A DNA stretch of 40,855 nucleotides from Myxococcota bacterium (lineage in GTDB: Bacteria > Myxococcota > XYA12-FULL-58-9 > JALHOP01). The stretch covers positions 1 through 40,855 of the forward strand of contig JBGGMJ010000060.1 of assembly GCA_041288095.1 (NCBI GenBank), read 5' to 3'. Below are positions 60 through 10,145 of this stretch, piece after piece (the stretch's first letter is position 1; each line of letters starts with the position of its first letter). The notes beneath the pieces were generated by a model. The model ran no database searches, was not told the DNA's origin, and worked only from the letters and a program-made list of their open reading frames with translations. Position numbers and translations under genes: made by a program.

Positions 60-2564
60 TTGCGAGACGTGTCGACCAAAGCAGTCGTCCAGATCCGGGG
101 TGCCCGCGAGCACAACCTCAAGGACGTGGACGTCGACATCCCCCGCGACGCCCTGGTCGTATTCACGGGTGTCTCGGGGTCGGGCAAGTCGTCACTCGCC
201 TTCGGCACCCTCTACGCAGAAGCGCAGCGGCGCTACCTCGAGTCGGTCTCGCCATACGCGCGGCGTCTGTTCCAGCAGATGCCGGTGCCCGAGGTCGACG
301 CGATCGATGGGCTGCCTCCCGCCGTCGCCTTGCAACAGCAGCGCGGGGGGACGACGGCGCGCTCGTCTGTCGGCAGTGTCACCACCCTCTCGAACCTGCT
401 GCGCATGCTCTACTCGCGCGCCGGCGACTATCCGAAGGGCGCTCCGCGGCTCGAGGCCGAGGCCTTCTCGCCGAACACACCGAGCGGCGCTTGTCCCCGC
501 TGCCACGGACTGGGTCGCCTCTACGACGCCACCGAAGCCTCGATGGTCCCCGACCCCGCGCTCACGATTCGCGAGCGCGCCATCGCCGCCTGGCCGCCGG
601 CTTGGCACGGGCAGAACCTGCGCGACATCGTCACGACGCTCGGCTACGACATCGATACGCCATGGCGAAAGCTCCCCAAGCAGGACCGCGATTGGCTGCT
701 GTTCACCGACGAACAACCGACCGCGCCGGTCTACGCGGGTTACGAGCCCCACGAGGTGCGCCGGGCGCTGAAGCGCAAAGAGGAGCCCAGCTACATGGGC
801 ACCTTCACGGGCGCTCGGAAGTACGTGCTGCAGACCTTCGCCACCACCCAGAGCGCCCTCATGAAGAAGCGCGTCGCGCGTTACATCGTCGGCGCCGACT
901 GCACGACGTGCGACGGCAAGCGCTTGGGTCGCGCCGCCCTCGCGGTTCGGTTCGCGGGCCGGGACATCATGCAGACCTCGCGGCTCACCCTCGAGGAGCT
1001 GCACGCGCTCTTCTCGCGCCAAGTGAAGACGGCCGCCGACGACGACTCGCGGCTCGTCGTGCAGCGCATCGCCGAAGACATGGTCGCGCGGCTCGCGAGC
1101 TTGCTGGACCTGGGGCTCGGGTATCTGACGCTCGACCGCAGCACGCCAACGCTCTCTCCCGGTGAGCTCCAACGCCTGCGCATCGCCACCCAAGCACGCG
1201 CCAATCTCTTCGGTGTCGTGTACGTGCTCGATGAGCCGACCGCCGGCTTGCATCCGTCTGACACGCAGGCCTTGCTGCGTGCGCTGGCCGCTTTGAAGAA
1301 CGCCGGCAACTCGCTGTTCGTCGTCGAGCACTCCGTGGACGTCATCGAGCGAGCCGATTGGGTGGTCGACGTCGGGCCGGCCGCTGGCGAACATGGAGGC
1401 CGCATCCTCTATAGCGGCCCGCTGCGAGGGTTGCGGGAGGTCGCCGCGTCGCAGACGGCCAAGTTCGTTTTTCGCAAGCGCTCCGCCGTCACTCGGGCGC
1501 GTCGCGAGCCTATCGCCTGGCTCGGGCTCGAAGGTGTCACGCGCAACAATTTGCAGGATCTCGCCGCCGCCTTCCCGCTCCATGCCATGACCGCGGTCAC
1601 CGGGGTCTCGGGATCCGGGAAGTCGAGTCTCGTCTCGCAAGCGCTCGTCGACATCGTCAGGGACCACCTCGGAATGACGGGCGAGGACGAGGAGCAAGCA
1701 GACGACGTCCCGGCCCTCGAAACGGCACCCATGGCGCCGACCCTCGGGCGCATCGGCAGCGGCGCCTCGGAGGTGCGCCGCCTGGTCATCGTCGACCAGA
1801 AGCCTATCGGACGCACGCCGCGCTCGAGCCTCGCGACCTACACCGGCCTGTTCGATCATGTGCGCAAGCTCTTCGCGAAGACGAAGCTTGCGAAGGCGCG
1901 GCGCTACGACGCCGGCCGCTTCTCTTTCAACGTCGGCAAAGGGCGCTGCGCCACCTGCTCCGGCGAGGGCTTCGTCATGGTCGAGCTGTTGTTCTTGCCG
2001 AGCGTCTACGCCCCATGCCCCACCTGCCACGGCGCTCGCTACAACGAGGCGACACTCGAGGTCACGCACGCCGGCAAGAACATCGCCGACGTCCTGCGCA
2101 TGACCGTCGACGAGGCCTTCGCTTTTTTCGACGACGAGCCCACCATCCGCCACGCGCTCGGTGTCGTCCGCGATGTCGGACTCGGCTACATCCGGCTCGG
2201 GCAGCCGGCAACCGAGCTTTCGGGCGGCGAGGCTCAGCGCGTGAAGCTCGCCACCGAGCTCCAGCGCGAAGGGCGCGGCGGCACGTTGTTCGTGCTCGAC
2301 GAGCCCACCACGGGCCTACATCCCAGCGACGTCGAGAAGCTGCTCCGCGAGCTCGAGCGTTTGGTCACCGCCGGTAACACGGTGGTGCTCGTCGAGCACG
2401 ACATGCAAGTGATCGCGGCATGCGATTGGGTCATCGACATGGGGCCGGGCGCCGGCTCGAAGGGCGGCACGGTCGTGACGGCGGGGACACCGGAGGCCGT
2501 CGCCAAGTCGCGTCACGGTAGGACGGCGGAATACCTCGCGGCTTTCCTGGGCGAGGCCTCCTGA
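60..2564 (+). CDS. uvrA: UvrA-family ABC ATPase, class II (UvrA2/DrrC-like)
   Basis: N-terminal [12 protein letters not shown]. Two Walker A motifs (GVSGSGKSS), signatures LSPGELQR and LSGGEAQR, Walker B DEPT twice, CxxC zinc motifs. At 834 aa it is shorter than canonical UvrA. Start is TTG60 or GTG69. Confidence 0.92.
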
Positions 2565-3088
2565 TGGCAGGCGACGACGACAACACGCCAAAGCGACGCT
2601 GGACCAAGCCCTTTCGGATCCTGGCTCAGATCATTCTCGCCCCGGTCGTCCTCTTCGAGGAGTGGGGCTGGGAGCCATTGCAGCGGGTGGTCGGCTGGCT
2701 CGTCCGCCATAGCCCATTCAAGGCGCTCGAGCGCGTCATCGCCTCCCTGCCACCTTACGGAGCTCTCTTCACCTACGCGACGCCGGCGATTGGCCTGCTG
2801 CCGGTGAAGCTCGCCGCCCTGAAGCTCATCGCCATGGGACACCCCATGGTTGGGATCGGCGTCATCGCCGGCGCCAAAGTCGTCGGCACTGCTATCGTCG
2901 CGCGTCTCTTCCATCTGACCAAGCCACAGCTCCTGCGGATCCCCTGGTTCAACCGTCTCTATGCCTGGTGGGTTCCGTGGAAGACCGCTATCGTGGACGC
3001 GGTCAAGGCGTTTCCGGTGGTTCGAGCGATCCGGTCTCTCTCGTCCGAGCTCCGCCAGTCCGTCGCCGGTTGGTTCCGCCGGCGCTAG
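2564..3088 (+). CDS. Membrane hypothetical protein
   Basis: Start overlaps the UvrA stop (TGATG). Hydrophobic segments, FEEWGWEPL motif, GC3-rich codons. Confidence 0.8.
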   Translation: MAGDDDNTPKRRWTKPFRILAQIILAPVVLFEEWGWEPLQRVVGWLVRHSPFKALERVIASLPPYGALFTYATPAIGLLPVKLAALKLIAMGHPMVGIGVIAGAKVVGTAIVARLFHLTKPQLLRIPWFNRLYAWWVPWKTAIVDAVKAFPVVRAIRSLSSELRQSVAGWFRRR

Positions 3089-3165
3089 CGCGGCCGCTGT
3101 GTGGTCTCGCCCTCGCCCTGACGGTCTTGGTGCGCCGCTTGGTCCGCAAGCGCACACCTAGCGTC

Positions 3166-4239
3166 TCACTCGGCCGGTAGGTCCAACGACGCCATGACCT
3201 TCGCGGGCTCTCGATAGGTGCGCTGGATCTGGTCGCCATCGCGGACCTTGCGCAAGCCGTCGAGCAGGATCTTCTCGCTGCCGTCGAGCCCCTCCGCGAC
3301 CACGAACAGGTGCGGCAGCTCGACGGAGACCGCGATCTCTCGCGCATGCACGATGCCGCCGTCGTCGACGGTGTAGACGAACTTCTTGTCGAGGATGTCG
3401 AAGGTCGCGCTCTGCGGAATGATGAGCACGTCGTGGAGCGGCAACGTCATCAAGATCTTGCCGGTCTCGCCGTGCCGCAACAGGCCCTTGGGGTTGGTGA
3501 AGGTCGCGCGAAACGCCAGGTTGCCGGTCTCGTTGTTGAAGTCCGCCTCGATGGTCTCGATTTTCCCGGGCTCTTCGAACACCTTGCCGTTCGCCATGAC
3601 GAGCTTTACCGGCGCTGGCTTGTTCGCGGCCACGTGTGATTGGTAGTCGAGATATTCGGCTTCGGTGACGTTGAAGTAGACCCACATCTGACTGTTGTCG
3701 GACAGCGTGGTGAGCAGCTCGCCCTCGTCGAGCAGACTGCCTTGACGGACCAGCAAGCGATTCATGACGCCGTCGAACGGCGCCTTGATCTCGGTGAAGG
3801 CGAGATGCGTCCGCGCAAGCGACACCTCGGCCTTCGCCTTCTCCCACTTGGCTCTGGCCATCGCGAGCTCGTTTGGCGAGACCACGTTCTTGTCCTGCAG
3901 CAACTTTGTGTTGCCGTATTCGACTTCGGCGAACTGCGCTTCCGCATCCGCTTTCTGCAGCTCCGCTCGATAGAGCATCGGCATGATCTGGAACATGCGC
4001 TGACCCTTGTGGACCAGCTGCCCCTCGTCGACGAAGGTCTGCTGCAAGAAGCCACGCGCCATGGCACGGACTTCGATGTGCTGGATCGCGCGGATCTGGC
4101 ACACGTACTCTCGCGTCGTCTCCGTATCGGTCCGCATGGGGCTGGTAACCGGATAAGAGGGGCGCTCGTGGACCGCTTCGTGATCCGCGTGGCAAGCGGC
4201 GAGCACCGCCATAACGGTCATTGCTACTATTGATTTCAT
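3166..4239 (-). CDS. RND efflux periplasmic adaptor (membrane fusion protein), lipoprotein
   Basis: Lipobox VLAAC; MFP motifs VDEGQLVHKGQ, IKAPFDG, MWVYFNVTE. ATG4239 overlaps the OMF stop (ATGA), so it is preferred over the ORF-track start 4266. Confidence 0.92.
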   Translation of the reverse strand: MKSIVAMTVMAVLAACHADHEAVHERPSYPVTSPMRTDTETTREYVCQIRAIQHIEVRAMARGFLQQTFVDEGQLVHKGQRMFQIMPMLYRAELQKADAEAQFAEVEYGNTKLLQDKNVVSPNELAMARAKWEKAKAEVSLARTHLAFTEIKAPFDGVMNRLLVRQGSLLDEGELLTTLSDNSQMWVYFNVTEAEYLDYQSHVAANKPAPVKLVMANGKVFEEPGKIETIEADFNNETGNLAFRATFTNPKGLLRHGETGKILMTLPLHDVLIIPQSATFDILDKKFVYTVDDGGIVHAREIAVSVELPHLFVVAEGLDGSEKILLDGLRKVRDGDQIQRTYREPAKVMASLDLPAE

Positions 4240-5684
4240 TCGCTTGCGGCCGGCGCCGTGCGCCACCCGCCTCCTAGTGCTTGGTAAACGTTGACGACGG
4301 CGCTCAGCTGGCGCTTCTTGGTCTCGATGAGCTCCATCTCGGACTCGAGCGCGTCGCGCCTGGTCGTCAACACTTCCAGGTAGTCCGCGCGCGCGGACGT
4401 GAAGAGTACGTTCGAGATGTCGATCGATTCGACGAGCTTCTCGACCTGTTGCGTTCGGAGCTGCACGCTGTTGCCGAGATTGCCGATCATGGCCAGCTGG
4501 TTCGCGGTTTCCGCGTAAGCCGCGAGCACTGTCTTCTCGTACTTGAGCACCGCCTGCATTTGCTTGGCGTTGGCCGAGTAATACGCCGCCTTGATGGCGC
4601 GCCGATTGAGGAGGGGCGCCAGAATGTTCGCCGAGACACCGTAAGCGAGCGACGCCGGCGTGTTGACCAGCCGGCCGACGCTGAAGGCGTTGTAGCCAAT
4701 GGCGGCGTCGATGCTCAGCGACGGGTAGAACAAGGCGCGTGCCACTTTGACGTCGAGCTGCGCGGCACGCAGCTCGAGCTCGGCCTGGCGCACGTCGGGA
4801 CGGTTCTCGAGCAGCTCCGTCGGCACACCGACACTCACGACACGCGGGGCGAGCTCGGTGAACGCGGCCGAGCTACGCCGCACGGGTTGTGGGAAGCGGC
4901 CGACCAGAAAGTTCATCCGGTTCTCGGCCTCGGTGATCTGCTGTTGAAGCTCGAACTGGCGGCTCTGATTCTTGAGGACCTCGGCCTCGAAGCGTTTGAC
5001 CGCGAGCTCCGTGACGCGCGCCGCTTGTTTCTCGAGGCGCACCACTTCGAGCGCACTGGTCTGCAGCGCGATGTTCTCCTTGAGCACGTCGAGCTGGTTA
5101 TCGAGGGCCATCAGCTCGTAGTAGAGCGTGCCAATCTCGGCGACGAGGCTGGTCACCGCGAAGTTCCGCCCCTCGATGCTCGCAAGGTAACGGAAGGCCG
5201 CCGCCTTGGTGGCGTTACGCAGGCGCTTCCAGATGTCGATCTCCCACGAGGCGCGAAACCCGAAGAAGTAGTTGGGCAACACCGCGGGCACCCGCCGTCC
5301 GGGCACGATGTCCGTGCTGTCGTCGCCCGCGCCCTGGCTGGTGTAGCGCCCCACCTTCTCGACGCCGGCGTCCGCCTCGAGGCCGAGTCGCGGCATGTAC
5401 TCTCCACTGCGCGCCAGCACCTCGTTGTTGGCGATGGTGATCTCCTGGAGGGCGATATTGAGCTCTTGGTTGTTCTTGAGAGCCAGGTCCACGAGCTCGA
5501 TGAGCGCCGGGTCGTCGAAGAATTCCCGCCACGGTGCGCTCGCCGAGTTGCCGCCGTCGGAGGTTTGGCCGAAGCTGTCGGGCACGGCCTTGTTGGGTTG
5601 ACGTGGCTCCTGCTGCTCGAGAGCCGGCACGCAAGCGCAGACGAGCAACAGCACGACCGCTTTGACGGAGTAGAGGTTACGCAT
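4236..5684 (-). CDS. RND efflux outer-membrane factor (TolC/OprM-like lipoprotein)
   Basis: Signal ending LLVCAC; motifs WREFFDDPAL, ASWEIDIWKRLR, LLENRPDVRQAE and C-terminal YQALGGGW. Likely start ATG5684. Confidence 0.93.
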   Translation of the reverse strand: MRNLYSVKAVVLLLVCACVPALEQQEPRQPNKAVPDSFGQTSDGGNSASAPWREFFDDPALIELVDLALKNNQELNIALQEITIANNEVLARSGEYMPRLGLEADAGVEKVGRYTSQGAGDDSTDIVPGRRVPAVLPNYFFGFRASWEIDIWKRLRNATKAAAFRYLASIEGRNFAVTSLVAEIGTLYYELMALDNQLDVLKENIALQTSALEVVRLEKQAARVTELAVKRFEAEVLKNQSRQFELQQQITEAENRMNFLVGRFPQPVRRSSAAFTELAPRVVSVGVPTELLENRPDVRQAELELRAAQLDVKVARALFYPSLSIDAAIGYNAFSVGRLVNTPASLAYGVSANILAPLLNRRAIKAAYYSANAKQMQAVLKYEKTVLAAYAETANQLAMIGNLGNSVQLRTQQVEKLVESIDISNVLFTSARADYLEVLTTRRDALESEMELIETKKRQLSAVVNVYQALGGGWRTAPAASE

Positions 5685-8600
5685 GACGGTGCGCAATCTC
5701 CTCGCTCACCGATTCTTCCGCTTGGTCGCGGATGAGCGAGCATCCTTCGGCGAGTGAGCCGCAGATGAAGTACAGGCCGGGCACGACCATCACGCCGAAG
5801 AGCGTGCCCAGCAGCATGCCGCCAAGCGCCGACGCCCCGATGGTGCGATTACCGATGGCACCGGGCCCCGTCGCCACGACCAGCGGGATCAAACCCGCCA
5901 CGAACGCGAACGAGGTCATGAGGATGGGCCGGAAGCGCGCCCTCGCGCCCGCGATAGCGGCCTCGAGCACCGACTTGCCCTTGGCGTGCTCCTGCACGGC
6001 GAGCTCGACGATGAGCACCGCGTTTTTGCCGAGCAAGCCGACCAGCATGATGAGGCTCACCTGGGCGTAGATGTCGTTGGCGAGCCCCAGGACCTTGAGC
6101 AACGCGAAGGAGCCGAAAACGCCGGCGGGGAGCGAGAGCACCACCGCAAGCGGCAAAATGAAGCTCTCGTACTGCGCCGCAAGCAGCAGGTACACGAAGG
6201 TGAGCACGACGGCGAAGATGACGATAGCCTCGCTGCCGCGCGCCGCTTCGTCGAAGGAGAGGCCTTCCCAGGCGATGTCGTAGCCACGCGGCAAGGTTTG
6301 ATCGGCGACTTCGCGCACCACCCGCAACGCATCGCCGGTGGTGTGGCCCTTCGCTGGTCCACCGCGAATCGCCGACGAGGTGTAGAGATTGTAACGCGTG
6401 ATTTCGTTGGGACCCTGCGTCTTCCGCATGGTCATGAACGCCGAGTACGGCACCATCTCGTCGCGGTCGTTCTTGACGTACAGGTCGAGGACGTCGGTCG
6501 GCATGCGGCGGAACTCGGGCGCCGCCTGGGTGTAGACCTTGTAGAAGCGGCCGAAGCGAATGAAGCCCTGCTCGTAGGTGCTACCGATGAGGATGCCGAG
6601 GTTGTCCATGGCGCGGGCGATCGACACGCCCTTCTGCATGGCGAGCTCGTTGTCGATGACCAGCTCGTATTGCGGATAGTTGGCCGCGAACATGGTGAAC
6701 AGACCGCTGAGCTCGGGCCGCTTGCCGAGCGCCTCCATGAAGGCTTTGTTCACTTCGTCGAACGCTTGGTAGTCGGTGGTGCCGGTCTGATCGAGCAGGC
6801 GCAGCGAAAAACCGCTGGCGGCGCCGTAACCCGGCACCGCGGGTGGCTCGAAGAACTCGACGATGGCCCCGATGTCCTTGGCCTTCACCTCGAGCTCCTC
6901 GATGACCTCTTGAACGGACGCGTGGCGCTCGTGCCAGCCCTTCAAATTGATGAGCACGGTGCCGGCGTTGGAGCCTCGGCCCTCCGTGAGTACCTCGTAG
7001 CCAGCGAGCGACGACACCGACTCGACGCCGTCGATCTCCTTGGCGATGCTCTGCAGGCGGCGAGCGACGTCGTTGGTGACTTCGAGCGTGGCGCCAGGAG
7101 GCGTCTGAATGATCCCGTAGATCATCCCTTGATCTTCGTTGGGGATGAAGCCCGCCGGCAGCACCGCGCTGATCAGGTAGATGCCGCCGGTGAAAATGGC
7201 GAACATCGCCACCGTCACGACACGCCGCTCGACGATGCGCCGCAGCAGCCAGACGTAACCCGTTGTCGCCTTCTCGAAGCCGGCGTTGAACCTATCGATG
7301 AACCAACCGACCGGCGTCTTGCGCTTGGGCCTCTCGGGCCCGTGTGCGTGCGGCTTCAAGATCATCGCGCACAGCACCGGCGTGAGGGTAAGCGCCACCA
7401 CGCCCGACAAGACGATCGATGCCGCCATGGTGATCGAGAACTGACGATAGAAGATGCCGACCGGGCCGGTCATGAAGGCCACCGGCACGAAGACCGCCGC
7501 CATGACCAGTGTGATGGCGATGATGGCGCCGCTTATCTCACCGAGGACCTTCTTGGTCGCCTGAAACGGCGAGCTGTGCTCCTCGGCCATCTTGGCGTGC
7601 ACCGCCTCGACGACGACGATGGCGTCATCGACGACGATGCCGATGGCCAACACCAGCGCGAACAAGGTGATGAGGTTGATGGTCAGGTCGAAGACCTGCA
7701 TGAAAACGAAGGCGCCGACGAGCGACACTGGCACCGCGATGGTGGGGATCAGCGTCGAGCGCCAGTCGCCGAGAAAAATGAACACGACGAGCGCCACCAG
7801 GACGAACGCCTCGAGCAGCGTGTGCGTGACCTGGTGAATCGACGCGTCGAGGAACTTCGAGACGTCGTAGCTAATCTGGTACTTCATGCCAGGTGGAAAG
7901 GACGCCTTCTCGATGCGCTCGAGGGTGCTCTTGACGCGCTCGATGACCTCCCTGGCGTTGCTGCCGTAGTTCTGTTTCAACACGAGCGCCGCTGATGGGT
8001 GACCGTCGAGGTTCGAGTAGATGTCGTAGAACTCACTGCTGAGCTCGACATCGGCGATGTCGCGCAGGAGGATCTTCTCGCCGGCGGGGTTCGCCCGCAC
8101 GATGATCTTCTCGTACTGCTCCGGTGTGTTATAGCGGCCCTGATAGACCAGGGTATATTCGAGCGACTGGCTTTTCTTGCCCGAGGCTCCGCCGGTACGC
8201 CCCGGCCGCGCGAAGACGCTCTGCTCGTCGATGGCCCGCATGATCTCTTCGCTCGAGACGTTGTAGGCGCGCATGCGATCGGGCTTGAGCCATATGCGCA
8301 TGGCGTACTGGCGATTGCCGAGGATGTCGGCCTGACCGATACCCTTGATGCGCTGCATCTCGGGGATGATGTTGACCATCGCGAAGTTGAAGAGAAACTT
8401 CTGATCGGCATGGGGATCGGTCGAGTAGAGGTTGACGTACATCAGCATGCTCGGCTGGACGCGCTGCACGATGACGCCTTCGCGCTGCACGAGCTCAGGC
8501 AACTGGTTGAGCACCTGGTCGACGCGGTTCTTGACGTTGACGACAGCGCGGTCGGGATCAGTGCCGAGATCGAAGATCACCTGAATGGTGGCTTCGCCGG

Positions 8601-8853
8601 CGCTGGTCGCGTCCGAGGTCAAATACTTCATACCCTGAACGCCGTTGATCGACAGCTCGAGCGGAATCAGCGTCGATTCGATGAGCGCCGACGCCGAGGA
8701 GCCCGGATACGAGATGCTGACGATGACGCGCGGGGGTGAGATCTCCGGGAACTGCGATACCGGTCGAGTCTTGGCCGCGAGCAATCCGAGAAACACGAGG
8801 ACCAGCGACGTGCATATCGCCAGCACGGGCCTGCTGATGAACTTCTGAAACAT
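5677..8853 (-). CDS. RND efflux permease (AcrB/HAE1-like)
   Basis: 1058 aa; FISRPVLA start, IGIVVDDAIVVVE, GLLGKNAVLIVE, RFRPILMTSFAF. Confidence 0.96.
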   Translation of the reverse strand: MFQKFISRPVLAICTSLVLVFLGLLAAKTRPVSQFPEISPPRVIVSISYPGSSASALIESTLIPLELSINGVQGMKYLTSDATSAGEATIQVIFDLGTDPDRAVVNVKNRVDQVLNQLPELVQREGVIVQRVQPSMLMYVNLYSTDPHADQKFLFNFAMVNIIPEMQRIKGIGQADILGNRQYAMRIWLKPDRMRAYNVSSEEIMRAIDEQSVFARPGRTGGASGKKSQSLEYTLVYQGRYNTPEQYEKIIVRANPAGEKILLRDIADVELSSEFYDIYSNLDGHPSAALVLKQNYGSNAREVIERVKSTLERIEKASFPPGMKYQISYDVSKFLDASIHQVTHTLLEAFVLVALVVFIFLGDWRSTLIPTIAVPVSLVGAFVFMQVFDLTINLITLFALVLAIGIVVDDAIVVVEAVHAKMAEEHSSPFQATKKVLGEISGAIIAITLVMAAVFVPVAFMTGPVGIFYRQFSITMAASIVLSGVVALTLTPVLCAMILKPHAHGPERPKRKTPVGWFIDRFNAGFEKATTGYVWLLRRIVERRVVTVAMFAIFTGGIYLISAVLPAGFIPNEDQGMIYGIIQTPPGATLEVTNDVARRLQSIAKEIDGVESVSSLAGYEVLTEGRGSNAGTVLINLKGWHERHASVQEVIEELEVKAKDIGAIVEFFEPPAVPGYGAASGFSLRLLDQTGTTDYQAFDEVNKAFMEALGKRPELSGLFTMFAANYPQYELVIDNELAMQKGVSIARAMDNLGILIGSTYEQGFIRFGRFYKVYTQAAPEFRRMPTDVLDLYVKNDRDEMVPYSAFMTMRKTQGPNEITRYNLYTSSAIRGGPAKGHTTGDALRVVREVADQTLPRGYDIAWEGLSFDEAARGSEAIVIFAVVLTFVYLLLAAQYESFILPLAVVLSLPAGVFGSFALLKVLGLANDIYAQVSLIMLVGLLGKNAVLIVELAVQEHAKGKSVLEAAIAGARARFRPILMTSFAFVAGLIPLVVATGPGAIGNRTIGASALGGMLLGTLFGVMVVPGLYFICGSLAEGCSLIRDQAEESVSEEIAHRHA

Positions 8854-8856
8854 ACA

Positions 8857-8916
8857 CCGCTACCTGAGGTCAGGGGGCTAACGAGGCTGGAAGGAAGACG
8901 AACCTCAGGAGAGCGG
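8857..8916 (-). promoter_or_regulatory. Predicted mRNA hairpin covering the RND translation-initiation region
   Basis: mRNA arm CCGCT-CT-CCTGAGGT (8916-8902) pairs with ACCTCAGG-T-AGCGG (8870-8857), 13 Watson-Crick pairs. The 3' arm ends 3 nt before ATG8853. Confidence 0.6.
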
Positions 8917-9276
8917 CGGGCCGCGTGCCGGGTGCACGAGCCACTGCGAACGAACGGATTCGAGCCCACGCTGATGGGCGATGCCGGCCCGTGCCGGCGC
9001 GCGGAAGGTCAGGTCAGCGACGTCGACACACACGTCGTCCGGAGCATCGTCTTCGATATCGGCGCTCAGCTCTTGATGGGCGTCCGCTACAGCGGGCAGA
9101 GCGTCGACGGATGCGTGGCCGGCCGCGGGCGGCGCAGGGCTGCCGTAGGCGACGGCCCCTGTGTCAAAATGACTCGCCCCCTGGAGGAGCGCGAAGCTCG
9201 CGAGCCACATGCCAAGCATGACGGCCGAGACGACGAGATTGCGCGAGCTGCTCACTCCATGACTCCAAACGGCCAT
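8905..9276 (-). CDS. Putative leader/arrest peptide: N-terminal TM or signal segment, acidic linker, C-terminal ARGPP
   Basis: Hydrophobic LVVSAVMLGMWLASFALL, D/E-rich linker, ends HPARGPPLS*. Lies 51 nt upstream of the RND permease on the same strand. Confidence 0.7.
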   Translation of the reverse strand: MAVWSHGVSSSRNLVVSAVMLGMWLASFALLQGASHFDTGAVAYGSPAPPAAGHASVDALPAVADAHQELSADIEDDAPDDVCVDVADLTFRAPARAGIAHQRGLESVRSQWLVHPARGPPLS

Positions 9277-9329
9277 CTTGTATTGGCTCAGATGGACGGA
9301 TCCCGCAAGGGGTCCGGAAGACTCGCCCG

Positions 9330-10145
9330 CTATGGCGTGCGGCAGAAGTCGCGGAGCTCGTCGGTCACGGGTGGCATTTCGCGCGCGAGTAGCCCGGCTT
9401 TGAAGAGCTCCCAGCGGCTCTGAAGCGTCGGGTAGCCGCTGAGCTGGACCGTGACGTGGGGATTGTCATCGGTGAGCAACAGGAGAGACTGGGTGCTGTC
9501 TTGCCCCACGAAGCAACACACCGCGTACGCGGCCAAGAAGCCGCGCTCGAGCAGCACGTCATGCGAAGCTTCCGGCCACAACATGCGTGCGCCATAGCGG
9601 GCGGCCCAGTAGTCGGCGCGTGCTTCGTTCTTGCTCTCCAGCAGGCGATGGCCGCGCTCGTGCGCAAGGATCAGCGCCAAGGCATCCGGCGTCATCCCCG
9701 GCGTGCGCACCACGCCGCCCGGGACGACGACCTCGGTCGCGTGCTTCGCGTCGACCTCGATGCGGGTGCTGTCGGCTGCCCAATCCAGAACGAAGGGAAA
9801 ACCGAGCTGGCGGCTGGCGTGACTGCACACCGCCAGGGCCTCCTCCATGGTCATCGGCGGCCGCGCCAACCGCGCGCTGAACGGCAGCGTCCGCAGAAGC
9901 GTATTGGTCGGCGTCTCCGGCGGTGTCGAGCTCGGCTCGGGCGCGGTACGCACCGTAACGCCGCCAATCAAGGTGGTGCCGGTCCGCCCTGGCGGACGAA
10001 CGAGGGTATCCAGGAGGTTCTCGGGAATGCCCTCCTGGCGAGCTTCGGCCAAGGCTGCGTCGCGGGGCATACCGCGTTTGACCGCGTACTCGAGCCGCGC
10101 GAGCACTTCCAGCTGGTCCCACTGACTGGCGGACATCGCTCGCAT
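9330..10145 (-). CDS. Hypothetical protein with a zincin (M48-like) metallopeptidase motif
   Basis: LILAHERGH (HExxH), then EARADYWA, and a later GYPTLQSR resembling the M48 HP..xR segment. Confidence 0.7.
   Translation of the reverse strand: MRAMSASQWDQLEVLARLEYAVKRGMPRDAALAEARQEGIPENLLDTLVRPPGRTGTTLIGGVTVRTAPEPSSTPPETPTNTLLRTLPFSARLARPPMTMEEALAVCSHASRQLGFPFVLDWAADSTRIEVDAKHATEVVVPGGVVRTPGMTPDALALILAHERGHRLLESKNEARADYWAARYGARMLWPEASHDVLLERGFLAAYAVCCFVGQDSTQSLLLLTDDNPHVTVQLSGYPTLQSRWELFKAGLLAREMPPVTDELRDFCRTP

Follow-up and report, generated by a model that had tools for sequence, protein, structure and literature searches.

A small gene directly upstream of an HAE1-type RND efflux operon probably encodes a translation-arrest leader of the RAPP/RGPP class that acts on this operon. 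It lies on the minus strand of the window, a term used here for the whole stretch of 40,855 nucleotides that was analyzed, and its product is laid out as a predicted export signal, an acidic, His-rich middle part and a putative C-terminal arrest motif. By these sequence features the leader fits the published class of RAPP/RGPP arrest peptides (ApdA/ApdP, CruR and a CutF-like logic; Fujiwara 2025). The features of the locus are the following:

8905..9255, minus strand: leader gene, start GTG 9255, 116 aa; the open frame continues upstream as far as ATG 9276 (123 aa)
9184..9240, minus strand: N-terminal hydrophobic segment NLVVSAVMLGMWLASFALL, approximately residues 6-24, after one Arg
9034..9072, minus strand: acidic cluster SADIEDDAPDDVC, residues 62-74, conserved, with D66 and D69 invariant (alignment A3)
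8914..8943, minus strand: putative arrest module W105-x4-A110-R111-G112-P113-P114, columns invariant in alignments A2 and A3; motif codons R 8925-8923, G 8922-8920, P 8919-8917 and P 8916-8914
8905..8907, minus strand: leader stop UGA, two codons past PP, within the hairpin 5' arm
8901..8918, minus strand: hairpin 5' arm CGCCGCU..CCUGAGGUU, from MFE structures, inside the modelled ribosome footprint (P1-12..P1+15)
8855..8871, minus strand: hairpin 3' arm GACCUCAGG.AGCGGUG, -18 to -2 of the RND AUG
5677..8853, minus strand: RND inner-membrane pump, HAE1 type, 1058 aa (PF00873, E 3.7e-290)
4236..5696, minus strand: outer-membrane factor (OMF), NodT/OEP family (PF02321; TIGR01845 250 against a cut-off of 210)
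3166..4266, minus strand: periplasmic adaptor (MFP) (PF16576; TIGR01730 206 against a cut-off of 95), start codon uncertain

The leader gene and its family

An earlier note had described a 123-aa ORF (8905..9276, minus strand) with an N-terminal hydrophobic segment, an acidic part and an ARGPPLS* end, and this frame is indeed found in the sequence. Translation probably begins at GTG 9255, and ATG 9276 is not favoured as the start. The ATG is missing from the same-genus orthologue, which carries a 1-nt indel just downstream of its position, GTG 9255 is the conserved start and is preceded by GGAG 7 nt upstream, and the database entry P0005 has the 116 aa predicted from this codon. As judged from sequence comparison, the leader is a genuine coding gene because its dN/dS against the orthologue of genome G002 is 0.34 (0.17 for the flanking genes), a 9-nt indel between the two is in frame and five relatives exist. 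Differences from G002 are distributed over the codon positions as 26/12/37, with the third position dominating, and gene callers predict the leader in two genomes. The ORF has a lower GC3 (0.77) than the neighbouring genes (0.83-0.87), and Pfam and NCBIfam searches assigned the leader to no family (no Pfam match at E up to 1).

The family comprises six members, the leader of the window and its five relatives, with lengths of 101-123 aa. Overall identity of the relatives drops to 23-28%, and proteins this diverged still show signal, acidic cluster and C-terminal motif; P0011 and P0012 are the two most distant members. The ending W-x4-A-R-[G/A]-P-P-x-x-stop is kept in all six (identity 23-71%), one of which carries RAPP in place of RGPP, and the number of residues between motif and stop is two throughout. 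The last ten residues are the only long invariant block of the family. Each member also has a hydrophobic segment near the N-terminus, scored by Kyte-Doolittle hydropathy over 15-residue windows (1.72-2.58, with 0-4 Lys/Arg ahead; best window 2.09 in the leader studied here), which is predicted to be a signal peptide or signal anchor. The distance from the acidic cluster to the P-site proline is 42-48 residues in 6/6 members.

The family is tiny. A word-indexed search of 5.8 billion proteins returned only the window's own protein and its G002 orthologue, HMM searches detected the family in 3/22 genomes of the order and in 3/401 sampled genomes of the phylum, all in one genus, and a scan of GTDB contigs found a G002-like contig only. 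Single-protein scans of metagenome contigs yielded no relatives of P0011 and P0012, and P0007, P0011 and P0012 have no Pfam match at E up to 0.1.

The motif is rare at the ends of reading frames in this genome. Among 53,368 stop-to-stop frames of at least 60 aa, RGPP falls in the last eight residues of 18, RGPPxx* ends nine and ARGPP lies within the last eight residues of three. Depletion of RGPP as such is not clear, with 16 RGPP against 28 AGPP in 3,390 frames that serve as a crude proxy proteome; the motif alone need not stall ribosomes here. According to Fujiwara et al. (2025), RGPP gives the most robust, EF-P-resistant arrest, arrest also requires the N-terminally neighbouring context beside the motif, and small exported proteins encoded ahead of diverse genes are enriched in RAPP/RGPP near their C-terminal ends (PMC12992588). 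With the stall geometry borrowed from the cryo-EM structures of ApdA/ApdP (PMC10951233), we infer by analogy that ribosomes stall at the RGPP of the leader.

The efflux operon and its linkage to the leader

The operon downstream of the leader is ordered RND, OMF and MFP; the position of the MFP gene at the end is unusual. By profile scores the pump is of the HAE1, AcrB-like type and not a heavy-metal exporter: it reaches 1038.2 bits with TIGR00915 (cut-off 940.35) and stays below the cut-off of the heavy-metal model TIGR00914 (305.8 vs 701.45). The downstream gene was not recognized as a Sec or YidC component, the SecD/SecF models scoring far under their cut-offs (TIGR00916, for example, 25 bits vs 148.6).

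In all three genomes with known context (the window, G002 and G003; P0008, P0011 and P0012 do not enter this count), the leader directly precedes an orthologous HAE1-type RND-OMF operon on the same strand, with 51, 52 and 92 nt between the end of the leader and the RND start. The RND genes behind the leader share 83-85% identity. The gene upstream of the leader differs in G003 and the linkage to RND is kept. RND orthologues at 69-75% identity (G025, G007 and G034) have an MFP gene directly upstream and no leader in 3/3 cases examined, and an MFP gene also stands upstream of less similar RND genes of 50-52% identity (G001 and G003).

The hairpin ahead of the pump start

The complementarity that had been noticed between the last codons of the leader and the region before the RND ATG is real and is part of the MFE structure. 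The 9-bp inner stem pairs CCUGAGGUU (8909-8901) with GACCUCAGG (8871-8863) and the 7-bp outer stem pairs CGCCGCU (8918-8912) with AGCGGUG (8861-8855), which leaves 1 nt between the hairpin and the AUG at 8853 (MFE -29.3 kcal/mol); the 3' arm includes the likely SD AGG at -12 to -10. As a bare fold of 91 nt the hairpin beats chance only modestly (z -1.53; 13/200 shuffles fold as well); in a context of 201 nt the z-score is -2.91 and 0/200 shuffles are as good. Two other identities of the element were considered and rejected. It is not a repeat, as the 3' arm occurs nowhere else in the genome (one match with up to five mismatches), and it is not a terminator, no terminator-like site being found there.

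[quoted passage not shown] Under the modelled stall the window shows a cost of 8.2 instead of 13.0 kcal/mol (a drop of 4.8; 4/300 shuffles reach the native value) and G002 one of 7.9 instead of 17.5 kcal/mol (a drop of 9.6; 0/300). In G003 the arm sequences differ, and other sequence brings about the pairing of the ARGPP codons with the SD and GUG in the MFE structure; the cost changes from 9.1 to 7.5 kcal/mol, and 54/300 shuffles are at least as good. These calculations speak for the hairpin model in the window and in G002 and lend it weak support in G003.

The earlier note had proposed that this hairpin links an RGPP leader, equipped with an export signal, to control of the RND start, and suggested looking for a conserved ORF and a covarying stem upstream of homologous operons. 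The proposal is partly supported, by the motif (6/6), by the linkage to RND (3/3) and by the drop in opening cost in the window and G002, but is weakened by G003, where the drop is 1.6 kcal/mol. As to the suggested check, the RGPP/RAPP ORF is conserved, but a covarying stem did not emerge, as no compensatory base change was seen in the comparison of the window, G002 and G003. Between the window and G002 no difference is seen from some 30 nt ahead of the RND ATG into the gene, so that the 3' arm is the same in both, and of the outer stem G002 retains only a part. Contigs from soil DNA runs contained near-identical strains only and showed no informative covariation; a minus-strand change of U8902 to C, present in one low-depth contig in each of two runs, removes a loop-end pair and is uncompensated.

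Mechanism, alternatives and related systems

In the mechanism proposed for the arrest leader, the N-terminal signal would bring the nascent chain to the Sec translocon, and the ribosome stalled at RGPP would occupy the 5' arm of the hairpin. As the 3' arm, by folding in the window and G002, covers the SD region of the pump to 1 nt before its AUG, the start site would be open during the stall. Efficient pulling-out of the chain would allow the ribosome to finish two codons further on, whereupon the hairpin would re-form and pump translation would drop. The amount of pump made would thereby reflect what becomes of the exported leader. What is sensed might be export or membrane energisation, acting on the acidic cluster that would be some 45 residues away from the catalytic centre when the ribosome stalls, or alternatively a periplasmic ligand held by the Asp/His-rich part.

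A specific form of the first option is that the leader senses membrane energisation, a tentative idea to which we give a low chance of being correct. The acidic cluster would be placed in or at SecYEG at the stall, where the membrane potential would pull on its acidic residues, and a drop in potential, or a block of export by membrane-active compounds, would prolong the stall and turn on the PMF-driven pump. A pull of the membrane potential on acidic residues (PMC6028853) and a ruler of about 45 residues (bioRxiv 10.1101/2021.12.23.474019) have been described.

The second option amounts to a metal or ligand sensor of the CutF/CruR type, in which the same arrest leader would stall for a time set by a periplasmic ligand bound to the Asp/His/Cys-rich part and not by export or energisation; this is possible, if doubtful. 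The exported part of the six members contains 11-17 Asp+Glu, 5-12 His and 1-2 Cys, with a Cys at a conserved position past the acidic cluster in 4/6. CutF and CruR act in this manner and CzcI precedes czcCBA (PMC9973294; PMC9426467), and the neighbours of the leader in a protein language model, usable as a lead only, carry the automatic names DUF2946 (0.96, 0.92 and 0.91) and CzcI (0.91). However, CxxxC is absent from the exported part of all six members, and a six-frame search of G000, G002 and G003 with PF11162 (DUF2946), run to E values of 10, gave no hit on the leader locus, so that by sequence the leader is not a DUF2946 member. The lack of any Pfam match at E up to 1 and the HAE1 rather than heavy-metal score of the pump also speak against such a sensor.

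Plain translational coupling to an ordinary small exported or membrane partner of the pump, with no programmed arrest and with ARGPP serving the mature protein, is unlikely. Because the leader stop lies inside the 5' arm, normal termination would briefly open the stem too, and purifying selection on the acidic, His-rich part as well as the internal occurrence of RGPP in 16 proxy proteins of this genome would suit such a partner. Against it stand the Atlas model of the leader protein, which is disordered (pLDDT 0.50, pTM 0.17), the confinement of long invariance to the last ten residues at a fixed two residues from the stop, the RGPP/RAPP exchange, which fits the known tolerance of arrest motifs (PMC12992588), and the presence of another RGPPxx* leader in the same genus.

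Control of transcription, instead of or besides that of initiation, appears improbable. Here the stalled ribosome would shield a C-rich, G-poor spacer from Rho and so set how much transcription reads on into the pump genes. In the window and G002 the sequence of hairpin loop and spacer is rich in C and poor in G, and CruR reportedly works by Rho-dependent termination (PMC9973294), but the spacer is just 51-52 nt long and no terminator-like site exists at the hairpin. Hardly credible, and already disfavoured, is a chance open frame in GC-rich DNA over a conserved non-coding 5' UTR element, for although the lower GC3 and the missing Pfam/NCBIfam match would agree with it, the codon-position pattern, the dN/dS of 0.34, the in-frame indel and the relatives that keep signal, acidic cluster and C-terminal motif at 23-28% protein identity do not.

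The favoured arrest leader shares much with the known RAPP/RGPP arrest peptides (ApdA, ApdP and the S. lividans set; Sakiyama 2021, Morici 2024, Fujiwara 2024/2025), which are likewise small (<300 aa), carry an N-terminal signal and R-[A/G]-P-P near the C-terminus, are encoded directly upstream of the presumed target on the same strand and keep the motif while the rest diverges. It differs in that their targets are Sec/YidC, TonB receptors, copper factors and thioredoxins and not an HAE1 RND pump, in having no sequence similarity to the named members, and in that its arrest is predicted. CutF of Rhodobacter capsulatus (cutFOG, DUF2946) is also exported and has a proline-rich stall motif at its C-terminus, and its gene is followed by a short spacer that forms a stem-loop over the next SD, where melting of the SD-shielding stem-loop by the stall has been demonstrated or proposed (PMC9973294; bioRxiv 10.1101/2025.02.05.636593); unlike the present leader, it has a CxxxC copper site and PF11162, and its output is a multicopper oxidase. 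CruR of Bordetella pertussis (DUF2946, RAPP) is similarly encoded just ahead of the envelope-transport gene that it regulates and carries a RAPP-type motif at its C-terminus, but the regulated gene is that of a TonB-dependent transporter, controlled over a 162-nt spacer, reportedly via Rho, and the response is to copper and independent of the signal sequence of CruR (PMC9973294). [quoted passage not shown] SecM, VemP and MifM share the force-releasable arrest of an exported nascent chain and the exposure of the downstream RBS by the stall (PMC10951233); they act back on the export machinery itself in a feedback loop, and not on an efflux pump.

The new point is the HAE1 pump as output, which is absent from the main-text descriptions of RAPP/RGPP leaders (PMC12992588). 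The words efflux, RND and transporter do not occur in that main text, although its source data may list efflux genes, and a literature search for an arrest peptide or stalling leader ahead of an RND pump found no RAPP/RGPP case, the only relevant items being a review of MexXY and the CutF paper. The earlier note had called such an output unusual, which is fair, but less so than it seemed since RAPP/RGPP leaders already precede many classes of genes (PMC12992588) and CzcI stands before czcCBA (PMC9973294). If the proposal is true, a multidrug-type RND pump would be under post-transcriptional control by a nascent chain, a mode of efflux control unlike the usual TetR or two-component repressors and unlike the indirect, antibiotic-sensing MexXY leader. 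Fujiwara et al. (2025) ask for the releasing force and the regulated process of leaders outside the Sec/YidC pathway (PMC12992588), for which the locus may offer a compact test case, its family being invariant only in the predicted export signal, the acidic cluster with its constant spacing and W-x4-AR[G/A]PP-xx-stop, and its short spacer containing a defined hairpin that covers the start site of a tripartite HAE1 pump. Since the host is an uncultured soil bacterium, the value of the system lies in its mechanism and not in clinical relevance.

A second, unrelated ORF with a TM segment and an RGPPxx* end precedes an ExbB/ExbD cluster in 4/4 genomes of the genus, which speaks for leaders of this kind as a habit of the lineage and thus for the arrest reading. 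An acidic cluster comparable to that of the RND leader was not found in this ExbB-associated leader, which therefore lends no support to the spacing idea. ExbB/ExbD is also PMF-driven, and the occurrence of an RGPP leader before it hints at arrest peptides that match consumers of the PMF to the status of the envelope.

The leader gene and its family

The 123-aa ORF with a terminal ARGPPLS* described in the earlier note is indeed present in the window, open from 9276 to 8905 on the minus strand. In G002, a genome of the same genus, the ATG corresponding to window position 9276 is absent and a 1-nt indel lies just 3' of that site. Both genomes have a GTG (window 9255) with GGAG 7 nt upstream of it, and the database entries for the leader are 116 and 113 aa long. 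On this basis, the gene is taken to be 8905-9255 (minus strand). The two leaders share 71% amino acid identity, with 26/12/37 differences at the three codon positions and an in-frame 9-nt indel. Their dN/dS is 0.34 compared to 0.17 in the flanking genes, and the GC3 of the leader is somewhat low (0.77). A more telling sign of a gene is the existence of relatives that can be recognised at the protein level only. The Atlas model of the protein is disordered (pLDDT 0.50).

A protein search of the relatives' genomes matched the leader in G002 alone. In G003, a third genome of the genus, the RND orthologue is 83% identical, and inspection of its upstream region revealed a 115-aa ORF that ends in SARGPPAV* 92 nt 5' of the pump and is 28% identical to the window leader. 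A profile of these three leaders was searched against 1.84 billion representative proteins (E up to 1e-3), and four of the seven matches are small relatives:

G003 protein
101 aa, C-terminus ARGPPLT
122 aa, C-terminus ARGPPRV
123 aa, C-terminus ARAPPSA

The invariant columns of the six-way alignment are one Leu of the signal, two Asp of the acidic cluster, a Trp and A-R-x-P-P, with Gly at x in five members and Ala in the sixth. Between this block and the stop there are always exactly two residues, and in all six members the first Pro lies 8 residues from the Trp and 42-48 residues from the acidic cluster. The exported part is acidic and rich in His (11-17 Asp+Glu, 5-12 His, 1-5 Lys+Arg). Judged from the alignment, a five-residue block at constant distance from the stop, with 23-28% identity elsewhere and a Gly/Ala swap, would be expected of an arrest motif under selection. 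An internal RAPP (..AFRAPPRAG..) lies 28 codons before the terminal RGPP in the G002 leader (stretch L002:1495-1836, minus strand) and in the database family member P0008, where the window leader reads RAPA; it may serve as an additional pause site or be there by chance.

The family is rare: of 22 genomes of the order, 3 carry a member, as do 3 of 401 genomes sampled from the phylum, and all of them belong to one genus, of which one genome has neither the leader nor the orthologous pump. In the window's genome, the terminus RGPPxx* is found on 9 of 53,368 stop-to-stop frames (60 aa or longer). Of the ORFs of 40 aa or more, 40 have R[AG]PP within the last 8 residues, and just two of these carry a strongly hydrophobic N-terminal segment, namely the leader and an ORF of 162 aa on a different contig. 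The counts of 16 internal RGPP versus 28 AGPP come from a crude proxy proteome and do not allow avoidance of RGPP to be demonstrated.

Upstream of the leader (window 9277-9329, minus strand), the window has the motif CCCCTTGCG in common with G002 and the otherwise diverged G003 (stretch L011, upstream of 5114). With its -35-like TTGCG it may be part of a promoter; a sigma-70 consensus scan found none.

The hairpin over the pump start

The stem that the earlier note proposed over the RND start is contained in the MFE structure of 8840-8930, where it is longer (9 + 7 bp) and reaches to 1 nt 5' of the RND AUG. Taken as a fold, it does not stand out over 91 nt (z -1.53) and does better over 201 nt (z -2.91). 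The cost of opening the ribosome binding site was calculated as the unpairing of positions -14 to +4 of the pump start, for free mRNA and for mRNA carrying a ribosome footprint on the RGP/P codons (P-site codon -12 to +15), following the stall geometry of ApdA and ApdP (PMC10951233).

Opening cost (kcal/mol) in free mRNA and with footprint, and shuffled footprints reaching the native value
Window: 13.0, 8.2, 4/300
G002: 17.5, 7.9, 0/300
G003: 9.1, 7.5, 54/300

In the G003 MFE structure, the ARGPP codons pair with the SD and the GUG via unrelated sequence, and the ensemble effect is weak. Of the conservation sought upstream of homologous RND genes, the RGPP ORF is kept in G002 and G003, and a covarying stem was not found: the hairpin shows no covariation between the window and G002 because their sequences agree fully from about 30 nt 5' of the ATG onwards, into the pump gene. 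A strain variant, minus-strand U8902 to C, on one low-depth contig in each of two soil runs, costs the stem one pair at its loop end; the RGPP codons are not affected. The hairpin is neither terminator-like nor a repeat.

Probable arrest class, operon and possible input

RAPP and RGPP have been described as the strongest, EF-P-resistant cores of an arrest-peptide class, enriched at the C-termini of small exported proteins upstream of genes as diverse as those for Sec components, TonB-dependent receptors, YcnI, PCu(A)C, PepSY, DsbA and thioredoxins; arrest was demonstrated for seven such peptides of Streptomyces lividans (PMC12992588). The words "efflux", "RND" and "transporter" are absent from the main text of that article, source data aside. 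Literature searches for leaders of the arrest or stalling kind ahead of RND pumps turned up only MexXY, as an indirect case, and the paper on CutF. When CutF of Rhodobacter stalls during export, at its C-terminal proline motif, the stem-loop that covers the SD of the next gene is melted, the same logic as proposed for the window leader (PMC9973294; bioRxiv 10.1101/2025.02.05.636593). We consider it quite probable that the putative leader is an arrest peptide of the RAPP/RGPP class; this assignment ranks above the full statement, still somewhat favoured, that it gates pump translation via the hairpin.

The genes around the leader are:

60-2564, plus strand: 834-aa UvrA-like protein (UvrA DNA-binding domain, ABC ATPase domains), convergent with the end of the pump operon
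2513-3157, minus strand: 214-aa ORF, immediately 3' of the adaptor gene
3166-4266, minus strand: periplasmic adaptor (MFP)
4236-5696, minus strand: outer-membrane factor (OMF) of the pump operon
5677-8853, minus strand: AcrB-type RND permease, directly downstream of the leader
9330-10145, minus strand: 271-aa protein with an HExxH-like LAHERGH motif, directly upstream of the leader

The order RND-OMF-MFP (3166-8853, minus strand), with the adaptor last, is unusual. Distant pump orthologues in the compared genomes G025, G007 and G034 (69-75% identity; 3 of 3 examined) have the adaptor directly upstream and no small ORF, as do less similar RND genes in G001 and G003 (50-52%; 2 of 2). The leader occupies the usual adaptor position of the more distant orthologues (MFP-RND). 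The 214-aa ORF, which has no Pfam or NCBIfam match, may be a fifth operon gene. The 271-aa protein has a sub-threshold match to Peptidase_M48 (E 0.27) and also adjoins the leader in G002; a zinc-ribbon protein takes its place in G003.

The acidic cluster keeps a constant spacing of about 45 residues to the catalytic centre, which matches the spacing of a nascent segment that is just arriving at the membrane (bioRxiv 10.1101/2021.12.23.474019). It has been reported that the pull of the membrane potential on acidic residues passing through SecYEG is strong enough for the release of a SecM arrest (PMC6028853, citing Ismail 2015). A role as a sensor of energisation or export is therefore attractive but unproven. 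The main alternative is a CutF-type sensor of a metal or a ligand. CzcI, a relative without the proline motif, lies upstream of czcCBA (PMC9973294). Language-model neighbours of the leader are named DUF2946 and CzcI, which is a lead rather than a test. Every profile test for DUF2946 membership was negative, and the window leader lacks CxxxC. The pump itself is HAE1-like, as earlier suggested, scoring 1038 bits against TIGR00915 (cut-off 940) and 306 against the heavy-metal exporter model TIGR00914, below the cut-off of 701.

A second probable RGPP leader in the genus

An unrelated RGPPxx* leader precedes an ExbB/ExbD cluster and is kept in all four genomes of the genus (70-88% identity). In the window's genome, it is encoded as follows:

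Contig C10:55861-56349 (stretch L031:1362-1850), plus strand: 162-aa ORF, N-terminal TM, C-terminus ...RP[LMV]RGPPxx*

The ORF has no match in Pfam or NCBIfam. About 100 nt downstream begins an ExbB-ExbD-ExbD-ExbB-ExbD-ExbD cluster, and a conserved hairpin (GTCACGTC..GACGTGATC) lies just 5' of the exbB SD. This ORF, too, probably encodes an RGPP arrest leader; its output would be PMF-transducing.
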